DNA of 64,000 bases, taken from the sequence record OL770074.2; one strand, given 5' to 3'. A model generated the notes under the pieces. It had not been told where the DNA came from, did no database searches, and saw nothing but the letters and a program-made list of their open reading frames with translations. Below, piece by piece: positions 53,362 to 64,000 of this stretch; position 1 is the stretch's first letter, and each line of letters opens with the position of its first letter. The position numbers and the translations under genes are program-made. The stretch is from Escherichia phage vB_EcoM-RPN187.

Positions 53362-53369
53362 TATAAATA
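53362..53369 (+). promoter_or_regulatory. late promoter (TATAAATA) for gene 34
   Basis: Exact TATAAATA 30 nt upstream of the gene 34 ATG. Confidence 0.6.
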
Positions 53370-53399: not shown

Positions 53400-56300
53400 A
53401 TGGCCGACATCAAACGTAAGTTCAGAGCCGAAGACGGTCTGGACGCCGGTGGCGACAAGATTGTTAACGTAGCATTAGCCGACCGTACAGTAGGTACTGA
53501 TGGCGTAAACGTTGACTTCCTGGTACAAGAAAACACCGTTCAAGTATATGATTCTACGCGTGGATATAACAAAGGATTTGTTGTTCTTTATGACAACCGT
53601 TTATATCAAGCAATAAATGATATCGTGTCTCCTTCCGGGGCATTTAACCTTTTACAATGGCGTGCAGTTCGTACCGATGCACAATGGATAACTGTCTCTT
53701 CTGGGACTTATCAACTTTCTTCAGGTGAATCGATTTCGGTTAACACTGGTGCCGGCAATGATATGGTTTTCACATTGCCAAATACGCCGGTTGATGGTGA
53801 TACTGTTGTTTTGGCTGATATTGGTGGAAGAACCGGGACAGTTAAAGTACAGATTAACGCGTCTGTGCAGAGTATTTTAAACTTTAGAGGTGAACAAGTT
53901 CGTACAGTTTTAATGACGCGCCCACGTTCACAACTATTGTTTGTGTTTAGTAATCGTTTGTGGCAGATGTATATTACCGATTATGGTAAAGAATCAATCA
54001 CTGTTACACCTGCGGCACCATACCAAGCACAAGCAAATGATTTTATCGTTCGTCGTTTTACTAGTGCAGCACCAATCAACATTACACTTCCACGTAATGC
54101 TAACAATGGTGATATAATCAGCCTAGTCGATTTAGATAGATTAAACCCGCTGTATCATACATTTGTTAAAACATTTGATGATACAACGTCTATTGGTGAA
54201 GTCGGGACTCATATTGCCGAAGGCAGAAATGACTCTGACGCGTTTTTTGTTTTTGATGCTGCAAATAGTTTATGGCGTATATGGGAAGGCGACCAGAAAT
54301 CGCGTCTTCGTATTATCCGTGCGGATTCAAATATTCGTCCAAATGAAGAAGTTCTTATTTTTGGCACAAATAACGCTACAGCCGGAACTATTAATCTTAC
54401 GCTGCCTTCTGGAATTTTGAGTGGTGACACTGTTAAAATTTCAATGAACTACATGCGTAAAGGCCAAACAGTAAAAATTAAAGCTGCCGAAGGTGATACA
54501 ATTGCTTCTTCTGTTGCGTTGCTTCAGTTCCCTAAACGTTCGGAGTATCCACCTGATGCACAATGGGTCTCTGTTACTGAACTAGAATTCAATGGCACTA
54601 CTTCATATGTTCCTGTATTAGAATTAGCGTATATCGAAGACACCGTTGCTGGTACACGTTATTGGGTTGTTAAACAAAACGTCCCAACTGTAGAACGTGT
54701 CGATGCTGGAACTGATGCTACACGAGCTCGTTTAGGTGTTATTGCTCTTGCTACTCAAGCGCAAGCAAATGTTGATTTAGAGAATACTCCAGCTAAAGAA
54801 GTGGCTATTACTCCTGAAACGTTGGCAAATCGTACAGCAACTGAAGCTCGACGTGGTATCGCCAAAATTGCTACAACATCACAAGTTAACCAGAATTCCA
54901 CAGCATCATTTGTGGACGATACTATTGTTACGCCTAAAAAACTAAATGAGCGTACAGCAACTGAAACTCGTCGCGGTCTTGCTGAAATTGCTACTCAGAC
55001 TGAAACCGATGCTGGTCTTGATGACACAACGATTATTACGCCTAAGAAATTACAGGCACGTCAGGGTTCCGAAACACTATCGGGTATAGTTAAATATGTA
55101 TCAACTACTTCTGCTACTCCTGCCGAAACTCGTGGGGCTGCAGGCACTAATGTTTATAATAAAACCGTAAATAATTTAACTATTTCTCCTAAAGCCCTTG
55201 ACCAATATAAAGCAACTTACGCCCAACAAGGTGCAGTAATTTTAGCTATTGATAGTGAAGTAATTGCTGGACAATCTCAGTCTGGATACTCTCATGCTGT
55301 AGTAACTCCTGAAACACTACATAAGAAAACTTCTACTGATGGACGTATTGGTTTAATTGAAATTGCTACGCAAGCAGAAACTAATGCTGGGACTGATTAT
55401 ACACGTGCAGTAACGCCTAAGACGTTAAATGATAGGAGAGCGACGGAAGGATTATCCGGCATAGCCGAAATTGCTACGCAAGTTGAATTTGATACTGGAA
55501 CTGATGATACTCGTATCTCGACTCCACTGAAAATTAAAACTCATTTTGATTCTTCTGACCGTACCAGTGTTAATTCTGATTCCGGACTTATTGAAGAAGG
55601 AACCTTGTGGAACCATTATACTCTTGATATTTCTAAAGCAAATGAAACACAACGTGGTACACTTCGCGTAGCGACCCAGGCAGAATCTAATGCAGGAACT
55701 TTAGATGATGTTCTTATTACTCCTAAAAAGCTTTTAGGGACTAAGTCCACTGAAACGTCTGAAGGTGTAATCAAGGTTGCAACCCAGTCTGAAACTGTGA
55801 CTGGAACGTCAGCGAACACTGCTGTATCTCCTAAGAATTTAAAATGGATTGTGCAGAGTGAACCAACATGGGCTGCTACTACAGCAATTCGCGGATTCGT
55901 TAAAACTTCATCCGGTTCTATTACATTCGTTGGTAATGATACAGTCGGTTCTACACAAAACTTAGAGCTATACGAGAAAAATAGCTATGCAGTATCACCG
56001 TATGAATTAAACCGTGTATTGGCAAATTACTTGCCATTAAAAGCAAAAGCTGCTGACGCAAATTTATTAGATGGCCTAGATTCATCTCAGTTCATTCGTA
56101 GGGACATTGCACAGACGGTTAATGGTTCACTAACCTTAACCCAACAAACGAATCTGAGTGCCCCTCTTGTATCATCTAGTACGGCTACGTTTGGTGGTTC
56201 GGTATCTGCTAATAGTACATTAACTATTTCTAATACAGGTGCTTCAACTCGCTTAATATTTGAAAAAGGTCCACAAACTGGAAACAACCCTGCTCAGGCG

Positions 56301-57275
56301 ATGAATATCCGTGTATGGGGTAACCAATTCGCCGGCGGTTCTGATACATCTCGTGCTACGATATTTGAAGTTGGTGATGAAACATCTAACCACTTTTATT
56401 CACAACGGGATAACCTTGGTAATATTACTTTCAGCATCAACGGTACAGTTCGGCCGATTAATGTTAATGCATCCGGAACATTGAATGCTAATGGTGCGGC
56501 AACATTTGGACGTTCGGTGACAGCACAGGGTGAATTTATAACCTATAGTGCAAACGCATTCAGAGCAATTAGTGGTAATTACGGATTCTTTATTCGTAAT
56601 GATGCTGCTAATACCTATTTTATGCTTACTGCATCAAGTGATCAGACTGGCGGATTTAATGGATTACGTCCTTTAGCTATTAATAATGCATCCGGCCAAG
56701 TAACGATTGGTGAAAGCTTAATCATTGCCAAAGGTGCTACTATAAATTCAGATGGTTTAACTGTTAACTCGAGAATTCGTTCTCAGGGCACTAAAACCGC
56801 TGATTTATACACCCGTGCACCGACATCTGATACTGTAGGATTCTGGTCAATTGACATTAATGATTCAGCTACTTATAACCAATTCCCGGGTTATTTTAAA
56901 ATGGTTGAAAAAACTAATGAAGTGACTGGGCTTCCATACTTAGAACGTGGCGAAGAAGTTAAATCTCCTGGTACATTGACTCAGTTTGGTAATACACTTG
57001 ATTCACTTTACCAAGATTGGATTACTTATCCAACAACTCCAGAAGCACGTACAACCCGTTGGACACGTACATGGCAGAAAACTAAAAATTCTTGGTCGAG
57101 TTTTGTTCAGGTATTTGATGGCGGAAACCCTCCTCAACCTTCTGATATTGGCGCTTTACCTTCTGATAATGCAACAATCGGAAACTTGACAATAAGGGAT
57201 TTCTTAAGGATTGGTAATGTTCGCATTATTCCAGACCCTGTGAATAAAACTGTTAAATTTGAGTGGATTGAATAA
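53400..57275 (+). CDS. 34: long tail fibre proximal subunit gp34
   Basis: 1291 aa; internal repeats of the E-x-RRG-I/L-A-x-IAT type; size and position as in T4. Confidence 0.9.
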   Translation: MADIKRKFRAEDGLDAGGDKIVNVALADRTVGTDGVNVDFLVQENTVQVYDSTRGYNKGFVVLYDNRLYQAINDIVSPSGAFNLLQWRAVRTDAQWITVSSGTYQLSSGESISVNTGAGNDMVFTLPNTPVDGDTVVLADIGGRTGTVKVQINASVQSILNFRGEQVRTVLMTRPRSQLLFVFSNRLWQMYITDYGKESITVTPAAPYQAQANDFIVRRFTSAAPINITLPRNANNGDIISLVDLDRLNPLYHTFVKTFDDTTSIGEVGTHIAEGRNDSDAFFVFDAANSLWRIWEGDQKSRLRIIRADSNIRPNEEVLIFGTNNATAGTINLTLPSGILSGDTVKISMNYMRKGQTVKIKAAEGDTIASSVALLQFPKRSEYPPDAQWVSVTELEFNGTTSYVPVLELAYIEDTVAGTRYWVVKQNVPTVERVDAGTDATRARLGVIALATQAQANVDLENTPAKEVAITPETLANRTATEARRGIAKIATTSQVNQNSTASFVDDTIVTPKKLNERTATETRRGLAEIATQTETDAGLDDTTIITPKKLQARQGSETLSGIVKYVSTTSATPAETRGAAGTNVYNKTVNNLTISPKALDQYKATYAQQGAVILAIDSEVIAGQSQSGYSHAVVTPETLHKKTSTDGRIGLIEIATQAETNAGTDYTRAVTPKTLNDRRATEGLSGIAEIATQVEFDTGTDDTRISTPLKIKTHFDSSDRTSVNSDSGLIEEGTLWNHYTLDISKANETQRGTLRVATQAESNAGTLDDVLITPKKLLGTKSTETSEGVIKVATQSETVTGTSANTAVSPKNLKWIVQSEPTWAATTAIRGFVKTSSGSITFVGNDTVGSTQNLELYEKNSYAVSPYELNRVLANYLPLKAKAADANLLDGLDSSQFIRRDIAQTVNGSLTLTQQTNLSAPLVSSSTATFGGSVSANSTLTISNTGASTRLIFEKGPQTGNNPAQAMNIRVWGNQFAGGSDTSRATIFEVGDETSNHFYSQRDNLGNITFSINGTVRPINVNASGTLNANGAATFGRSVTAQGEFITYSANAFRAISGNYGFFIRNDAANTYFMLTASSDQTGGFNGLRPLAINNASGQVTIGESLIIAKGATINSDGLTVNSRIRSQGTKTADLYTRAPTSDTVGFWSIDINDSATYNQFPGYFKMVEKTNEVTGLPYLERGEEVKSPGTLTQFGNTLDSLYQDWITYPTTPEARTTRWTRTWQKTKNSWSSFVQVFDGGNPPQPSDIGALPSDNATIGNLTIRDFLRIGNVRIIPDPVNKTVKFEWIE
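54820..55860 (+). repeat. intragenic repeats in gene 34 (six or more divergent copies of a roughly 35-40 aa motif ...RxGxxEIATQxExxxGTDDTxxxTPKKL...)
   Basis: Seen in the translation: EARRGIAKIATT, ETRRGLAEIATQ, GRIGLIEIATQ, SGIAEIATQ, GTLRVATQ, GVIKVATQ; boundaries approximate. Confidence 0.6.
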
Positions 57276-57283
57276 GAGGTATT

Positions 57284-58411
57284 ATGGAAAAATTTATGGC
57301 TAAGTTCGGACAAGGATACGTCCAAACGCCATTTTTATCGGAAAGCAATTCAGTACGATTTAAATTAAGCATAGCGGGCTCTTGCCCGCTATCAACATCT
57401 CCTGCTTATATTAAGTTCCAAGATAATCCACTTGGGTCCCAGGTTTTTTCCGTTGGATTAAACGTTCGTGTAATAAATCCTACAACAGGTGCAGTAGTTG
57501 AATCTAAGTCATATAATTTCTCTACTGAAAACGACGCCACGTCAAGTGCATTTGTTACTTACATGGACACATATGCTTCTAATTTTATATTTGCTCTTGT
57601 TACTAACGCTAAAACAAACTTTCCTCCTGAAGTTCTCGCATGGTTTACCAAAGTTGGGAGTTCTGTTATTCCATTAGCTCAACAAGTTTTAAATATAGTG
57701 GACATTTCTTATTCTGCATTTTATATTTCTGGTAAGAATGCTATAGCACTAGAACATATTAAGTATAGTAATAAGAAAACTTCAACCGACTATAGTACAC
57801 CACTTGATGTTGTGTACGACACGATTGATGATATTGGTGCTACCGGCTTTCCTAGTCGTACGTACGAATCGACAGACACATTTTTATCTGCTGTTGGAGG
57901 TACTAATAATGAAATTAAAAGGATGCCTACAACGTCCCTTATTACACCTCTCGCTGGGTATAAATTGAAGGCTGGAGATTTCCTTTATATGAAATTCCAA
58001 CTAATGGCTGATGCTGATTTGTTAGCACAAGGGACGACACGACTTTCTATTCGTTTCTTTAAATCTCCTTCTACTTCACCTATTTCATTTAAGGATATAA
58101 ACTTTGATGGGGGCGCAGGTGAATGGAAGATATATGAAGACTACATAGAAATTCCTGCCGGTGCCGACGGGTTCACGATTTATTGTTATCGTACAGCTCC
58201 AGTTGGGCAAGGTGGATTAAGAAATGTTATATTCACTGAAGTATCATGTAATGGAAGCGTTTCAAAACCTGCCGAGTTTGGTATAAATGGTATTCGTGTA
58301 AATTATGTTTCAGAATCTTTAAGTGCCCCAGACATATTGACATTACCTACTCAATCTTCAACTGATACTGGTAAGGTATTTGGACAAGAATTTAAAGAAG
58401 CATCAGAATAA
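57284..58411 (+). CDS. 35: long tail fibre hinge connector gp35
   Basis: 375 aa; synteny. Confidence 0.8.
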   Translation: MEKFMAKFGQGYVQTPFLSESNSVRFKLSIAGSCPLSTSPAYIKFQDNPLGSQVFSVGLNVRVINPTTGAVVESKSYNFSTENDATSSAFVTYMDTYASNFIFALVTNAKTNFPPEVLAWFTKVGSSVIPLAQQVLNIVDISYSAFYISGKNAIALEHIKYSNKKTSTDYSTPLDVVYDTIDDIGATGFPSRTYESTDTFLSAVGGTNNEIKRMPTTSLITPLAGYKLKAGDFLYMKFQLMADADLLAQGTTRLSIRFFKSPSTSPISFKDINFDGGAGEWKIYEDYIEIPAGADGFTIYCYRTAPVGQGGLRNVIFTEVSCNGSVSKPAEFGINGIRVNYVSESLSAPDILTLPTQSSTDTGKVFGQEFKEASE

Positions 58412-58416
58412 ATTTA

Positions 58417-58440
58417 GGGAGACTTCGGTCTCCCATTTTT
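58417..58440 (+). terminator. intrinsic terminator GGGAGAC-UUCG-GUCUCCC + U-run downstream of gene 35
   Basis: Identical 18-nt hairpin followed by ATTTTT. Confidence 0.75.
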
Positions 58441-58441
58441 G

Positions 58442-58449
58442 TATAAATA
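58442..58449 (+). promoter_or_regulatory. late promoter (TATAAATA) for gene 36
   Basis: Exact TATAAATA 25 nt upstream of the gene 36 ATG. Confidence 0.6.
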
Positions 58450-58473
58450 TGGTATACATATAAGGAGACAACT

Positions 58474-59136
58474 ATGGCCGATTTAAAAGCTGGTAGTACA
58501 ACTGGCGGTGCTGTTATATGGCACCAAGGTAATTTCCCTTTAATGCCAGCAGGTGATGACGTCCTGTATAAAACGTTTAAACTCTATTCAGAATATAATA
58601 AACCGCAAGCGGCTGATAACGACTTCGTTTCTAAAGCTAATGGTGGTACTTACGCTGCGACTGTTCGATTTAATGGAGGCGTACATGTTCCTACTGTAGG
58701 TAGTAGTCAACAGTGTGGTGTTTATCCAGGTAACGGTGATAATGCTACTTTTGCTGTAACAAATATCGATATTGTTTCGTGGAATGGTATTGGTTTTAAG
58801 TCATCACAAGGTTCAGCAGACCGAACTGTTGTAATTAATGCACGTAACGGTGATATTAGTACAAAAGGCGTTGTGACAGCAGCTGGTCAAGTAAGAAGTG
58901 ATGCGACTGCTCCTATAGCAGCGAATGACCTTACTAGAAAAGATTATGTTGATGGACGAATAAATATTGTTACAGATAACGCAAATTCCCGTGTATTGCG
59001 TTCTGGCGATACTATGGCTGGTACTTTAACAGCACCAAACTTTTTCTCACAGAATCCGGCATCTGAGGCTAATCATGTTCCTCGTTTCGACCAGATTGTA
59101 ATTAAAGATTCTGTTCAAGATTTCGGCTATTATTAA
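58474..59136 (+). CDS. 36: long tail fibre distal subunit gp36
   Basis: 220 aa; synteny and size. Confidence 0.85.
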
Positions 59137-59144
59137 GAGGACTT

Positions 59145-62100
59145 ATGGCTACATTAAAACAGATACAATTTAAAAGAAGCAAAACCGCAGGTGCACGTCC
59201 TGCTGCTTCAGTATTAGCCGAAGGTGAATTGGCTATAAACTTAAAAGATAGAACAATTTTTACTAAAGATGATTTAGGAAATATCATTGATCTGGGTTTT
59301 GCTAAAGGCGGACAAGTTGATGGAAATGTAACTATAAATGGTCTTTTGAGATTAAACGGCGATTATGTACAAACAGGCGGAATGACCGTAAATGGACCTA
59401 TTGGTTCTACTGATGGCATAACTGCAAAAGTTTTCAGATCTACACAAGGTTCATTTTACGCAAGAGCAACAAACGATACATCAAATGCCCACCTTTGGTT
59501 TGAAAATACGAATGGATCGGAGAGAGGGGTTTTATACTCAAAACCGCAGTCTGAAAATGAAGGCGTAATTACAATGCGTGTTCGCCAAGGAACCGCAGCA
59601 GGGGCTCAAAGTTCAGAATTTCATTTCATTTCTACTGATGGCGGTATCTTCCAGGCACGCAAATTAACTGCTTTAACTTCTATTAGTACACCAACTATTA
59701 GTGTTAATTTAATTAATCATGATTCTAAAGCCTTTGGACAATATGATTCACAATCTTTGGTTAACTATGTTTATCCTGGAGATGGCGAAACCAACGGAGT
59801 AAACTATCTTCGTAAAGTTCGCGCTAAAGCTGCCGGAACCATGTGGCATGAAATCTGTACAGCTCAGACTGGCCAAGCAGATGAAATGTCTTGGTGGACG
59901 GGTAATACTCCATCATCTAAACAATATGGTATTCGTAACGACGGCCGAATGGCTGGGCGTAATAGCCTTGCATTAGGTACATTCACTGCAGATTTCCCAT
60001 CTAGTGATTATGGTAACGTCGGTGTAATGGGCGATAAGTATCTTGTTCTCGGTGACACTGTAACTGGCTTGTCATACAAAAAAACTGGTGTATTTGATCT
60101 AGTTGGCGGTGGATATTCTGTTGCTTCTATTACTCCTGACAGTTTCCGTAGTACTCGTAAAGGTATATTTGGTCGTTCCGAGGACCAAGGCGCTACATGG
60201 ATTATGCCTGGAACCAACGCAGCCTTTTTATCGGTTCAAACACAGGCCGATAATAACAATGCTGGAGACGGACAAACCCATATCGGGTACAATGCTGGTG
60301 GTAAAATGAGTCATTATTTCCGCGGTAAAGGCAAAACTAATATTAATACTCAGGAAGGTGTAGACGTTAACCCGGGTATTTTAAAATTAACAACCGGTGC
60401 TAACAGTATTAGCTTTAACGCTGCAACAGGTAATATTGATTCTACATTAGCTTTTCGTCTTAATAAAGGTATAATTATTGATGGGCCTGATAATCAGGGG
60501 TTCCAATTCAATGCTCCGACGGCTGTAGATGGTACTAGAAGCATATACTGGAATAGTGGCACACGCTCAGGTCAAAACAAAAGCCCTGTTACGGTTAAGG
60601 CATGGGGAAGTGCGTACAGCACAGGCGATAAATCTCGTGAAACTGTATTTGAAGTTGGCGACGGACAAGGTTATTATTTTTATGCGCAGCGTGTAGCTCC
60701 AGCTTCAGGATCTACTGTTGGGCCAATTCAATTTAGAATTGCTGGAGCATTATTAACCGGTGGTGGTATTACATCATCCGGCTCGATTGTTACAGAATCC
60801 AGTTTAGTTGCTAATAACGGAATGACTGTAAACGGTCAAGCCAAATTTGGCGGAACAGCAGATGCATTAAGAATTTGGAACTCTCGTTATGGTGCCATTT
60901 TCCGCCGCTCAGAAACATCATTATATATTATCCCAACTAACGAAAATGAAGGGGAAAACGGTGAAATAAACGACCTTCGTCCGTTTAGTATTGAGTTAGG
61001 CACCGGCGCAGTTTATATGAATCACGTTGTTGATATTGGCCGGGGCAAGTTTAAAGTAGAAGCATCCGGTACTACAGCAGGGCAACGTATTACAGTTAAT
61101 ACTGCCTCCGATGCTATTAGAATAAATGCTCCAACACAAGAATCTTCTAACTTCATCCAAGGACGTAAAGCAGATGTTCCGAAATGGTATTTAGGTATTG
61201 GCGATGGCGGCAACATCGTTCGTATGCACAGTTACACCTACTCCCATGGTATTGCATTAAACTCTGATACTGTTGATATAGCTAAACCTCTTAGAATAGG
61301 TTCAGCTCAATTAGGTACTGATGGTAATATTACTGGCGGTTCTGGTAATTTTGCTAACTTGAATACCACAATAAATAACCTTAAGACGGATATTGTCTCG
61401 AGTTACCCAATTGGCGCTCCGATTCCTTGGCCTACTGATACACCTCCTGAAGGCTATGCCATAATGGAAGGTCAAACATTTGATGCTGGCTTGTATCCTA
61501 AGTTAGCTGCGGTGTATCCTTCCGGCACTCTGCCTGATATGCGTGGTCAAACTATCAAGGGTAAACCATCTGGGCGTGCTGTATTAAGTACAGAAGCAGA
61601 CGGTGTTAAGTCACATAGCCATAGTGCAAGTGCATCAAGCACAGATTTAGGTACTAAGACCACTTCTAGTTTTGATTACGGTAGCAAAACGACTTCAAGC
61701 TTTGATTATGGTACTAAGACAAGTAGTACCACTGGCAACCATAACCATACAGTGAGTGGTAATACTAGTTCCGCTGGTGCTCACCAACACGCGCGTTCAG
61801 GCCCTCAGATACAAGGCGTCGTACCCGCTAGCATATTCTATGATGGATACAATAGTGCCGGTCCAAACGGCAACGCTAAAATCACTGGAAGCGTGAGCGG
61901 TGCTACTGCATCGTCGAATATGGCCAAAACTTCTTCAGACGGTGCCCACGCCCATAGTTGGTCTGGTACTACTAGCGCCACAGGTAACCATGCGCATACG
62001 GTGGGTATTGGCGCTCATACCCATTCGGTAGGTATTGGTGCTCATACGCATACTGTTGCAATTGGTTCCCATGGACATACAATAACTGTAAATGCCACAG

Positions 62101-62159
62101 GAAATACAGAAAACACAGTTAAAAACGTTGCTTTTAACTATATCGTTCGTTTAGCATAA
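59145..62159 (+). CDS. 37: long tail fibre distal subunit gp37 (receptor-binding tip)
   Basis: 1004 aa; C-terminal His-x-His boxes ([59 protein letters not shown]) as in T4-type gp37. Confidence 0.9.
61650..61730 (+). repeat. tandem 30-nt repeat in gene 37 (about 2.7 copies, encoding [11 protein letters not shown])
   Basis: ggtactaagaccacttctagttttgattac / ggtagcaaaacgacttcaagctttgattat / ggtactaagacaagtagtacc read directly. Confidence 0.7.
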
Positions 62160-62164
62160 GGAGA

Positions 62165-62185
62165 AGGGACTTCTGTCCCTTTTTA
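62165..62185 (+). terminator. intrinsic terminator downstream of gene 37
   Basis: gggac-ttct-gtccc followed by TTTTT. Confidence 0.6.
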
Positions 62186-62189
62186 TAAT

Positions 62190-62741
62190 ATGAAACTCTA
62201 TCACTATTATTTTGACACTAAAGAATTTTACAAAGAAGAAAATTACAAACCATTAAAAGGCGTAGGATTTCCGGCTCATTCGACACCAAAAAAACCTTTA
62301 GACCCTAAAGAAGGCTATGCTATTATATTTGACGAACGCGAGCAAGAATGGGTATATGTTGAAGACCATCGTGGAAAAACGGTATGGACTTATGATAAGC
62401 AAAAAATTGTTATTGACACTCCAGGTGCTCTTCAAAATGTTACTACAGAAGAACCCGGCGAATTTGACATTTGGACCGACGACGGGTGGAAGGAAGATGA
62501 AGCATATAAACGCGTAGTTCAACGTGATAAGAAAATTCATGAACTCTATAAATTATTCAGTGTTTTAAGTTCTCTTATTGACGCAGAGGTTGCTAATAGA
62601 GAAGAAAAACGAAAATTTAAAGAGCTCAAAAAATTCTTTGCCCTTTTAGAAAAGCATGAACATCTTGGCGGTGAATTCCCTAAATTCCCTGACCTTGAAA
62701 ACAAATCTATTGTCAAAGCGATTATAAATATCTTTAAGTAA
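62190..62741 (+). CDS. 38: gp38 tail-fibre assembly chaperone (T4 type)
   Basis: 183 aa; MKLYHYYFDTKEFYKEENYKP...KHEHLGGEFP resembles T4 gp38 rather than the longer T2-type adhesin. Confidence 0.85.
   Translation: MKLYHYYFDTKEFYKEENYKPLKGVGFPAHSTPKKPLDPKEGYAIIFDEREQEWVYVEDHRGKTVWTYDKQKIVIDTPGALQNVTTEEPGEFDIWTDDGWKEDEAYKRVVQRDKKIHELYKLFSVLSSLIDAEVANREEKRKFKELKKFFALLEKHEHLGGEFPKFPDLENKSIVKAIINIFK
62723..62730 (+). promoter_or_regulatory. late promoter (TATAAATA) for holin t, inside the 3' end of gene 38
   Basis: Exact TATAAATA 21 nt upstream of the t ATG, followed by AAGGAGG. Confidence 0.55.
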
Positions 62742-62750
62742 GGAGGTATT

Positions 62751-63410
62751 ATGGCAACACCAAAAGTATCATCTTCGCCTAGTGATATTCTATTTGGGTT
62801 GCTAGATCGTATTTTCAAAGATAACGCTACTGGAAAGGTTTTAATGTCTCGAGTAGCGGTAATTATTCTTTTGTTCCTAATGGCACTAATATGGTACAAA
62901 GGAAGTATTTTGCTGGATTATTATGTAAGAGCTAAGTATGATACTTATACTGAAATAATCCAAAAAGAACGAGCTTTACGTTTTGAATCTGCGGCTCTAG
63001 AACAACTGCAAATAGTTCATATCTCATCTGGTGCAGATTTTAGTGCTGTGTATTCTTTCAGACCTAAAAACTTAAATTATTTCGTCGACCTTATAGCTTA
63101 TGAAGGCAAACTACCTAGCACAATTTCTGAAAAGTCCCTTGGCGGATTCCCGGTGGATAAAACGGCTAATGAATATATAATTCATTTAAGTGGCCGTCAT
63201 TTCTCATCTAAATCAGAATTTGCATTTTTGCCTACAAAATCTAAGACTGCCGAACTTTCTTATATGTATAGTTGTCCATACTTTAATTTGGATAACATCT
63301 ATGCTGGAACTGTGACGATGTATTGGTATAAGGGGAGTAATATACTTGAGGAAGATCGCTTAGCGGCTATATGCAACCAAGCGATCCGAATACTAGGAAG
63401 GGCTAAATAA
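62751..63410 (+). CDS. t: holin T
   Basis: 219 aa; single transmembrane segment VAVIILLFLMALIWY and large periplasmic domain; close to T4 T as recalled. Confidence 0.9.
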   Translation: MATPKVSSSPSDILFGLLDRIFKDNATGKVLMSRVAVIILLFLMALIWYKGSILLDYYVRAKYDTYTEIIQKERALRFESAALEQLQIVHISSGADFSAVYSFRPKNLNYFVDLIAYEGKLPSTISEKSLGGFPVDKTANEYIIHLSGRHFSSKSEFAFLPTKSKTAELSYMYSCPYFNLDNIYAGTVTMYWYKGSNILEEDRLAAICNQAIRILGRAK

Positions 63411-63683
63411 TTAGTTGTTAGAATACATCGCTAAATGACGATAAATATTTTCAAAACCTTCATTGAATTCACTAATCAGTGTTTTCTTTTCTTCGGCAGT
63501 TAAATTTGTAATTAGTTTTCTGAACGAATTCTGATTTAGCTGCCGACCATCTTTTTTAATTCCAATCTCATTCAAGAATCCGATGAAACTTGCTCGGTCT
63601 TCAACAATATCTTCCCTAGAGAATTTAATCAAAATAGAAGCAATAGTAATAATTTCACGTACGATTTCAATATCTTTATTCAT
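63411..63683 (-). CDS. asiA: AsiA anti-sigma70 factor
   Basis: 90 aa; MNKDIEIVREIITIASILIKFSREDIV... matches T4 AsiA as recalled. Confidence 0.85.
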   Translation of the reverse strand: MNKDIEIVREIITIASILIKFSREDIVEDRASFIGFLNEIGIKKDGRQLNQNSFRKLITNLTAEEKKTLISEFNEGFENIYRHLAMYSNN

Positions 63684-63729
63684 AACGTTTTATTCATTCC
63701 ACTTAGTTGATATGGATATAGTACCATTA

Positions 63730-63891
63730 TCAGTGTTGATTGTAAACGGCTTTTTCTACGCTTTTAACGTAATTGGTATAGTCTTCCTGTTCATACGAGT
63801 GTAAGGCCAAGAACTGAACTAATAGTTCATTATAGACTAAAGCCTCACGCTCACGTTCGGCCTCTACTACGTTCTGAAGATTATGACTCAT
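63730..63891 (-). CDS. hypothetical small protein (T4 asiA.5 position), 53 aa
   Basis: ATG at 63891 preceded by AAGGA; the ORF-track start at 63945 would overlap the upstream gene by 65 nt. Confidence 0.3.
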   Translation of the reverse strand: MSHNLQNVVEAEREREALVYNELLVQFLALHSYEQEDYTNYVKSVEKAVYNQH

Positions 63892-64000
63892 ATCGTTCCT
63901 TATAACTATCAATATAGTCCTGTATGTCGAAGAATGATATTTCATATTCTAGGGCATTAAGAGCCCGTTCTTCAGTATAGTCAGAACCAAAGACGATAGT
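63881..64000 (-). CDS. partial CDS, 3' end only (upstream gene continues beyond the window; arn-like by position)
   Basis: 40 codons open from 64000 to TAA at 63881-63883 on the minus strand in AT-rich DNA; identity unknown. Confidence 0.3.
   Translation of the reverse strand, partial: TIVFGSDYTEERALNALEYEISFFDIQDYIDSYKERYES

Follow-up and report, generated by a model that had tools for sequence, protein, structure and literature searches.

A T4-like gene 37/gene 38 module with a TuIa/TuIb-class head and a putative paired-unit needle in Mosigvirus phage vB_EcoM-RPN187

In phage T4, the needle of the long tail fibre protein gp37 contains seven irons held by H-x-H motifs (PMC6957217; PMC11705849). 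For gp37 to trimerise, T4 requires gp38, which is not part of the mature virion (Hashemolhosseini et al. 1996, cited in PMC3157838). The systems closest to the one described here are the tips of T4, TuIa, TuIb, Bas42 and AV113, the lambda-type side tail fibres (Stf) of Escherichia coli prophages and, by gene name and position, the gp38 adhesins of T2, T6 and S16. We analysed genes 37 and 38 of Mosigvirus phage vB_EcoM-RPN187 (hereafter RPN187), which was isolated on swine-associated E. coli or from swine-associated samples, within a stretch of 64,000 nucleotides (nt) of sequence record OL770074.2 (the window).

As a whole, these two genes are best explained, with high confidence, as the host-recognition end of a T4-like long tail fibre and its folding chaperone, with a needle built from paired rungs and OmpC as the likely receptor. 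The open reading frame list, Pfam matches and T4 synteny gave the gene order 34-35-36-37-38-t-asiA, which is the order in T4, and amino acids (aa) 727-1004 of gp37 aligned to PDB 2XGF, the T4 gp37 tip (chain residues 2-242), with E 1.2e-88. Both results confirmed the T4-type gene 37/gene 38 module that had been proposed earlier from the nucleotide sequence and its reading frames (the original prediction). The two genes are as follows.

59145-62159, plus strand: gp37, long tail fibre distal subunit with the C-terminal receptor-binding domain, 1004 aa (PHROG 1699, E 3e-266)
62190-62741, plus strand: gp38, T4-type tail fibre assembly chaperone, 183 aa

The exact proteins are present in GenBank (ULA51974.1 and ULA52064.1), and 20-40 kb of the window is 98% identical to Mosigvirus phages AV112 and AV113. 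Within gp37, Pfam recognised the Collar, gp37_trimer and Gp34_trimer domains; NCBIfam gave no match for gp37 or gp38. The first 100 residues of gp37 were 94% identical to those of T4, and identity was 68% over 676 aligned residues. The module is of a known kind, its tip class having been sequenced in 1990 (TuIb) and its proteins deposited in GenBank, and T-even biology gains nothing new from the module itself.

As a trimer, gp37 would make up the distal half of the long tail fibre. Its last ~280 residues have the three-part plan of the T4 tip: collar, needle and terminal head, the head being the part predicted to touch the receptor. The parts of the tip were located as follows.

61413..61556, plus strand: Collar domain, aa 757-804 (Pfam PF07484 Collar, E 5e-11; aligned to 2XGF)
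61614..61622, plus strand: His box 1 (HSH, aa 824-826) at the needle base, from the H-x-H listing
61650..61739, plus strand: ascending 10-aa units, two full and one degenerate (T4 has one unit fewer)
61740..61790, plus strand: His boxes 2 and 3 (HNH, aa 866-868; HQH, aa 880-882), 14 residues apart, from the H-x-H listing
61791..61946, plus strand: head, the putative receptor-binding tip, aa 883-934, between boxes 3 and 4, of the TuIa/TuIb/Bas42 class (binding role suggested by T4 genetics)
61947..61955, plus strand: His box 4 (HAH, aa 935-937), which opens the descending strand, from the H-x-H listing
61983..62090, plus strand: descending 9-aa His-box units, the last being GSHGHTITV (boxes 5-8; T4 has one unit fewer)
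62091..62156, plus strand: conserved gp37 C-terminal tail, inside the last 45 residues

The multiple His-x-His boxes foreseen at the end of gp37 were present: eight H-x-H boxes lie in its last 181 residues, at aa 824, 866, 880, 935, 949, 958, 967 and 976, with spacings of 42-14-55-14-9-9-9. All 16 His of these 181 residues sit in boxes, as do all His of the last 184 residues; 9 His are scattered over the first 820 residues, none of them in an H-x-H. Each chain of the needle would ascend and then return, so that a trimer has six antiparallel strands, and each box, present three times in the trimer, would bind one metal ion. The box count predicts eight metal ions here versus seven in T4. Relative to the T4 tip, that of RPN187 is lengthened by a 10-aa insertion (the second ascending unit), by 15+3 aa within the head and by a 9-aa insertion (an additional GIGAHTHxV). 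The last 45 residues were 41-45/45 identical across T4, TuIa, TuIb, Bas42 and AV113, AV117 and AV118, and the terminal ...FNYIVRLA was found again in most homologues. As a separate observation, the collar and the needle start (gp37 aa 741-984; 61365-62096) matched a 554-aa 'short tail fiber' chain of a recent structure, 9cuy, with E 6e-8, and this match was convincing only over the collar.

We surveyed the needle by listing the raw distances between successive H-x-H boxes for each homologue; the heuristic that equates the largest gap with the head misassigned tips with short heads, and regular-expression counts of SFDY and GIGxHxH were noisy. The first set comprised 122 sequences (seven phage gp37 and 115 of 120 homologue matches); most of the 120 matches were prophage Stf tips, not full-length gp37. 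For the second set, a library-wide search was clustered at 50% identity, which gave 111 usable cluster representatives. In the first set, a gap of 32 aa between boxes 1 and 2 always occurred with two trailing 9-aa spacings and a gap of 42 aa always with three, across 18 distinct spacing patterns with different heads. Among the 111 representatives, gaps of 22, 32, 42 (41 in two), 52, 62 and 73 aa occurred with one, two, three, four, five and six trailing 9-aa spacings, respectively. A spacer of ~12+10n residues with exactly n trailing 9-aa spacings (n=1-6) therefore described both sets, and three odd spacing patterns complied once one extra or lost box was allowed. When the spacers were cut into 10-mers, the added length consisted of further GxKxxSxFDY-like units. 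Further, the 14-residue spacings beside the head were gained or lost symmetrically, on both sides together.

On this count, T4 has two rungs (n=2) and seven boxes, and RPN187, TuIa, TuIb, Bas42, AV113, AV117 and AV118 have three rungs (n=3) and eight boxes. His-box needles of one to six rungs were seen among the homologues, including P0250, P0188, P0211, P0141 and P0244. In homologue P0141, five ascending GxKxTxxFDY units accompany six 9-aa His-box units, and homologue P0244 combines a 73-aa spacer with seven 9-aa units.

In T4, the contacts G964-H929 and G921-F970 put ascending and descending residues side by side (PMC6957217). One rung would consist of a 10-residue ascending unit beside a 9-residue descending His-box unit (GxGAHTHxV); because the chain would run up and back, both arms of the needle must match in length. 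The 30-nt repeat of gene 37 would then encode the ascending half of the rung and a 27-nt repeat encoding GIGAHTHxV the descending half, and both strands of the RPN187 needle would be one rung longer than those of T4. The rung number in turn sets how many H-x-H boxes, and so how many predicted metal ions, a needle has. Two points weigh against this part of our explanation. The rule had no exception in ~230 homologues, although these include many related prophage side-tail-fibre tips, so that the counts are not independent events. Further, the pairing of units was deduced from length covariation and the two published contacts, not from coordinates. We did not find the rung rule stated in the literature covered, which did not extend to the structure paper of Bartual et al. 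(2010), and the rule may be known already; a literature search on the GXHXH motif gave nothing. For the engineering of T4- and Stf-type tips, the rule suggests that any change in needle length probably has to add or remove ascending and descending units in equal numbers.

The 30-nt repeat had been noted in the original prediction as a tandem repeat whose copy number offers an obvious route to variation in tip length or specificity. At the level of the peptide, the repeat is real: unit 1 lies at 61650-61679, unit 2 at 61680-61709 and a degenerate unit 3 at 61710-61739. At the level of DNA, however, units 1 and 2 share 23/30 bases with a longest in-register identical run of 8 nt, and Tandem Repeats Finder (TRF) did not call the repeat, even at score 30, the lowest threshold. 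The two units differ by five synonymous third-position changes and one Thr-to-Ser codon, and the divergence between units was alike in six relatives (22-27/30 identical). The 30-nt repeat is thus a conserved peptide repeat rather than a high-identity DNA tandem repeat, and the mostly synonymous differences between its units indicate an old duplication maintained by selection on the peptide. A second repeat had been overlooked: four 27-nt units, each encoding a 9-aa His-box unit, occupy 61983-62090, and TRF called their core at 61989-62053.

A contingency locus, in which slippage or unequal recombination often changes the copy number of the 30-nt repeat and thereby tip length or specificity, would agree with the range of rung numbers among lineages (n=1 to n=6) and with an 11-nt exact repeat, GGTACTAAGAC, at 61650 and 61710. 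The divergence of the units in RPN187 and its six relatives and the silence of TRF speak against such a locus, as does the length of the tip, which was identical in 59 of the 60 closest tips (84-99% identity). Further, the ascending count equalled the descending count throughout the ~230 homologues, and a change at a single site would mismatch the needle strands; the partner repeats lie ~330 nt apart. If the units are paired, the 30-nt repeat cannot vary alone, only jointly with the 27-nt repeat. We therefore consider a contingency locus very improbable, and the copy-number route to variation was not upheld, the copies having diverged and the units never changing alone. As a precedent in favour of such a locus, small duplications in the adhesin region of T4 gene 37 were reported by Tetart and colleagues in 1996 to expand host range.

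More tentatively, the His-box needle of T4-type and lambda-Stf-type tips may act as a modular ruler, in which a 10-aa unit, a 9-aa unit and a metal site are gained or lost only in concert, and in which the rung number may tune the reach of the head through the lipopolysaccharide (LPS) or O-antigen layer and so have a share in host range that does not depend on the head sequence. We regard this as a conjecture with less than even prospects. If it is true, RPN187 (n=3) and T4 (n=2) differ in reach as well as in the head.

To compare the heads, identity was counted over 58 positions including the flanking boxes, with the following results for RPN187.

AV113: 56/58; receptor OmpC, predicted by its authors (PMC10844046)
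TuIb: 47/58 (81%); receptor OmpC (PMC9659904)
Bas42: 44/58 (76%); OmpC primary and LPS deep core terminal receptor (BASEL supplementary table)
TuIa: 29/58 (50%); receptor OmpF (PMC9659904)
T4: 13/58; receptor OmpC and LPS

The RPN187 head is 18 residues longer than that of T4. The spacing between boxes 3 and 4 is 55 in RPN187, TuIb and Bas42 alike, and the complete spacing of TuIa, 42-14-55-14-9-9-9, is the same as that of RPN187. On sequence comparison, the head belongs to the class of TuIa and TuIb (records X55190 and X55191), not to that of T4. Alignment of the gp37 C-terminus with T4 and its relatives accordingly divided the tip: the needle and tail were of the T4 type, and the head, at 13/58 with T4, was not. 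Mapping of T4 contact residues onto the head was tried and abandoned; with 13/58 identity and large gaps, neither Nik, Nib and Arl (PMC5221442) nor the alanine-scan positions (PMC6957217) were transferable.

These comparisons point to OmpC as the likely primary receptor of RPN187. In a screen of 255 phages that included 73 Straboviridae (receptors assigned for 71 of the 73), all 17 OmpC-specific Straboviridae carried this Gp37 C-terminal type, with variable tips (bioRxiv 10.64898/2026.04.02.716166). Phages AV112 and AV113, with a 99% identical tip, were predicted by their authors to use OmpC (PMC10844046), and OmpC-proficient K-12 served as the isolation host of phages whose tips are at least 96% identical (NRG-P0074 on MG1655). 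An OmpC/LPS-type receptor had been put forward earlier by analogy to T4. OmpC stands as the best prediction, on the TuIb and Bas42 heads and the Straboviridae screen, but the analogy to T4 does not sustain it. Fine specificity probably differs from that of TuIb, because 11/58 head positions differ between the two.

Alternatively, the head might recognise something else. The candidates are the OmpF that TuIa uses, a different set of porin alleles or solely an LPS core sugar. The box spacing and the 29/58 head residues shared with TuIa are in favour of this, as are the 11 head positions unlike TuIb; where OmpC is missing, T4 is able to use LPS instead (PMC5221442), and AV116 and AV122, which have T4-type gp37, appear to be LPS-dependent (PMC10844046). 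However, the head is far closer to those of TuIb and Bas42 than to that of TuIa, and both the 17 OmpC-specific Straboviridae and the phages isolated on OmpC-proficient K-12 argue for OmpC. We judge a receptor other than OmpC to be unlikely, at a probability that is still appreciable. Other points also limit the case for OmpC as the receptor: the literature on RPN187 gave its isolation only and no receptor experiments; TuIa, whose head has the same length and architecture, is an OmpF phage, so that a receptor switch inside the head class is possible; and AV117 and AV118, which are OmpC-dependent by experiment, have unlike heads (17-18/58) and were dropped as direct support. With OmpC as the likely and OmpF as a possible receptor, the prediction is useful for cocktails that mix receptor targets, as with the relatives AV110-AV118.

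Gp38 aligned to T4 gp38 over its full length without gaps (119/183 identical, 65%; same length; E 2e-91). It passed the cut-off of Pfam Caudo_TAP (PF02413) marginally (23.3 bits versus 22.1), matched PHROG 105 'tail fiber assembly' with E 2e-49 and, as ULA52064.1, fell in a 173-member cluster at 90% identity. The earlier assignment of gp38 to the short 183-aa chaperone type, rather than the ~260-aa T2-type adhesin, was supported by the T4 homology, Caudo_TAP and PHROG 105. Gp38 would be a non-structural chaperone that aids trimerisation of the gp37 C-terminal domain and, by analogy to T4, is presumably absent from the RPN187 virion. A search of PDB gave no structure of a gp38 homologue. Separately, a glutathione transferase chain (6to3) matched aa 68-170 of gp38 (62391-62699) weakly, with E 1.7e-4 (E>0.1 for related chains), and this match is probably spurious.

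If gp38 were itself the tip adhesin, as in T2, T6 and S16, the gp37 C-terminus would be a mere carrier. The position of gene 38 on the 3' side of gene 37 would fit, and nothing else does. In addition to the length and full-length identity to the T4 chaperone, Caudo_TAP was the sole Pfam match, with none to the T2-type Gp38 adhesin family at E<=0.01. Gp38 contains 9 Gly in its 183 residues, with at most two per 15-residue window, and thus no glycine-rich motifs; gp37 is itself equipped with a complete needle and head that are homologous to 2XGF. We give an adhesin role for gp38 almost no credence and retain the chaperone assignment.

The gp38 alleles of T4, TuIb and Bas42 are 99.5-100% identical, although T4 differs in head and rung number, and RPN187 gp38 is 94-99.5% identical to those of AV113, AV117 and AV118, which go with three different heads. 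The gp38 allele thus tracks the genus backbone and not the head type or rung number, which suggests that gp38 probably acts on conserved parts of the tip. Candidates for these parts are the needle base and the C-terminal tail, the latter within the residues conserved at 41-45/45. In TuIa (X55190, 1178-1607; filed under Tequatrovirus T4), a gp38 fragment was 89% identical to the RPN187 allele and 73% to that of T4; being nearer the Mosigvirus allele, it indicates that the chaperone gene, too, has been exchanged between lineages.

Upstream of the tip, DNA comparison with AV113, AV117 and AV118 delimited one segment of gene 37.

59342..61281, plus strand: gene 37 shaft segment, aa ~66-712, mosaic allele

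The flanks of gene 37 were 93-96% identical to these phages up to 59341 and 97% from 61282, whereas the shaft between them had no or weak DNA match. At the protein level, the shaft was nearer T4, with 74-100% identity per 50-aa window over aa 1-150 and 201-400 and 100% at aa 301-350. As ULA51974.1, gp37 is a singleton cluster at 90% identity. By these comparisons, gene 37 is a mosaic.

The neighbouring genes of the module are as follows.

53400-57275, plus strand: gp34, 1291 aa
57284-58411, plus strand: gp35, 375 aa
58474-59136, plus strand: gp36, distal hinge connector joining the gp37 N-terminus, 220 aa (Pfam Phage_T4_gp36, E 6.7e-36; T4 synteny)
62751-63410, plus strand: holin t, 219 aa (Pfam Phage_holin_T)
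63411-63683, minus strand: asiA, 90 aa

Residues 58-129 of gp35 matched Pfam ILEI (interleukin-like EMT inducer, PF15711) with E 2.7e-7, over the family cut-off. The late-promoter motif TATAAATA was found before gene 34 (53362-53369), gene 36 (58442-58449, plus strand) and t (62723-62730), and the motif scan of the window found none before gene 37 or gene 38. The window contains 19 such motifs versus 7.3 expected by chance, and their putative promoter function follows the T4 late-promoter consensus. A terminator-like hairpin at 58417-58434 lies directly before the gene 36 motif. Since no TATAAATA precedes either of these two, genes 36, 37 and 38 probably belong to a single late transcription unit. 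One further element lies at the junction of genes 37 and 38.

62158..62189, plus strand: gene 38 translation initiation region, with AAGGAG at 62158-62163, a hairpin at 62164-62183 and the ATG at 62190

The Shine-Dalgarno sequence AAGGAG lies 26 nt upstream of the ATG with a G+C-rich hairpin between them, and the segment folds at -15.9 kcal/mol. The same layout was present in T4, TuIb, Bas42, AV113, AV117 and AV118, with compensating changes in the stem, and resembles the arrangement described for T4 gene 38 as a 'split ribosome-binding site'. Rfam gave nothing on 57000-64000.

Compared with known systems, RPN187 shares with T4 the gene order, the plan of collar, needle and head, corresponding H-x-H positions, 43/45 of the last gp37 residues and a gp38 of the same length (65% identical). 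Unlike T4, it has one extra rung (10 aa more on the ascending and 9 aa more on the descending strand), with eight boxes versus seven, and a head with 18 additional aa and no more than 13/58 identity; the stretch that corresponds to T4 residues ~660-770 is shorter in RPN187.

TuIb (X55191; Montag, Hashemolhosseini & Henning 1990; OmpC) has the same spacing of 42-14-55-14-9-9-9, with two full ascending units and four 9-aa units. Its head is 47/58 and its C-terminal 267 aa are 88% identical to RPN187. It differs in 11 head substitutions, a T4-type gp38 allele (65%) and a Tequatrovirus backbone. Bas42 (BASEL, AndreasVesalius) has the same tip architecture with a head at 44/58 and uses OmpC and the LPS deep core by experiment, whereas it is a Tequatrovirus with a T4-type gp38. 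TuIa (X55190; OmpF) resembles RPN187 in box spacing, head length and its gp38 fragment (89% identical), and differs in the head (29/58) and in its reported receptor, OmpF. AV113 is similar throughout, with the tip 99%, gp38 99.5% and the genome backbone 98% identical; unlike RPN187, it has a gp37 of 1048 aa with a different allele of the shaft (aa ~66-712), and its receptor is a prediction only.

Further away, the lambda-type Stf tips with Tfa in E. coli prophages have a collar, His-box needle, head and ...FNYIVRLA end, follow the rung rule and carry a Caudo_TAP chaperone gene downstream (PMC9659904). In contrast to RPN187, their shafts are unrelated, their contexts are siphoviruses and prophages, and they have mostly two rungs (n=2) and other heads. 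The gp38 adhesin of T2, T6 and S16 has no more in common with RPN187 gp38 than its gene name and its place after gene 37. With ~260 aa, glycine-rich motifs and hypervariable loops, it is an unrelated protein that sits on the fibre tip (PMC3157838), and we detected no similarity between it and RPN187 gp38.

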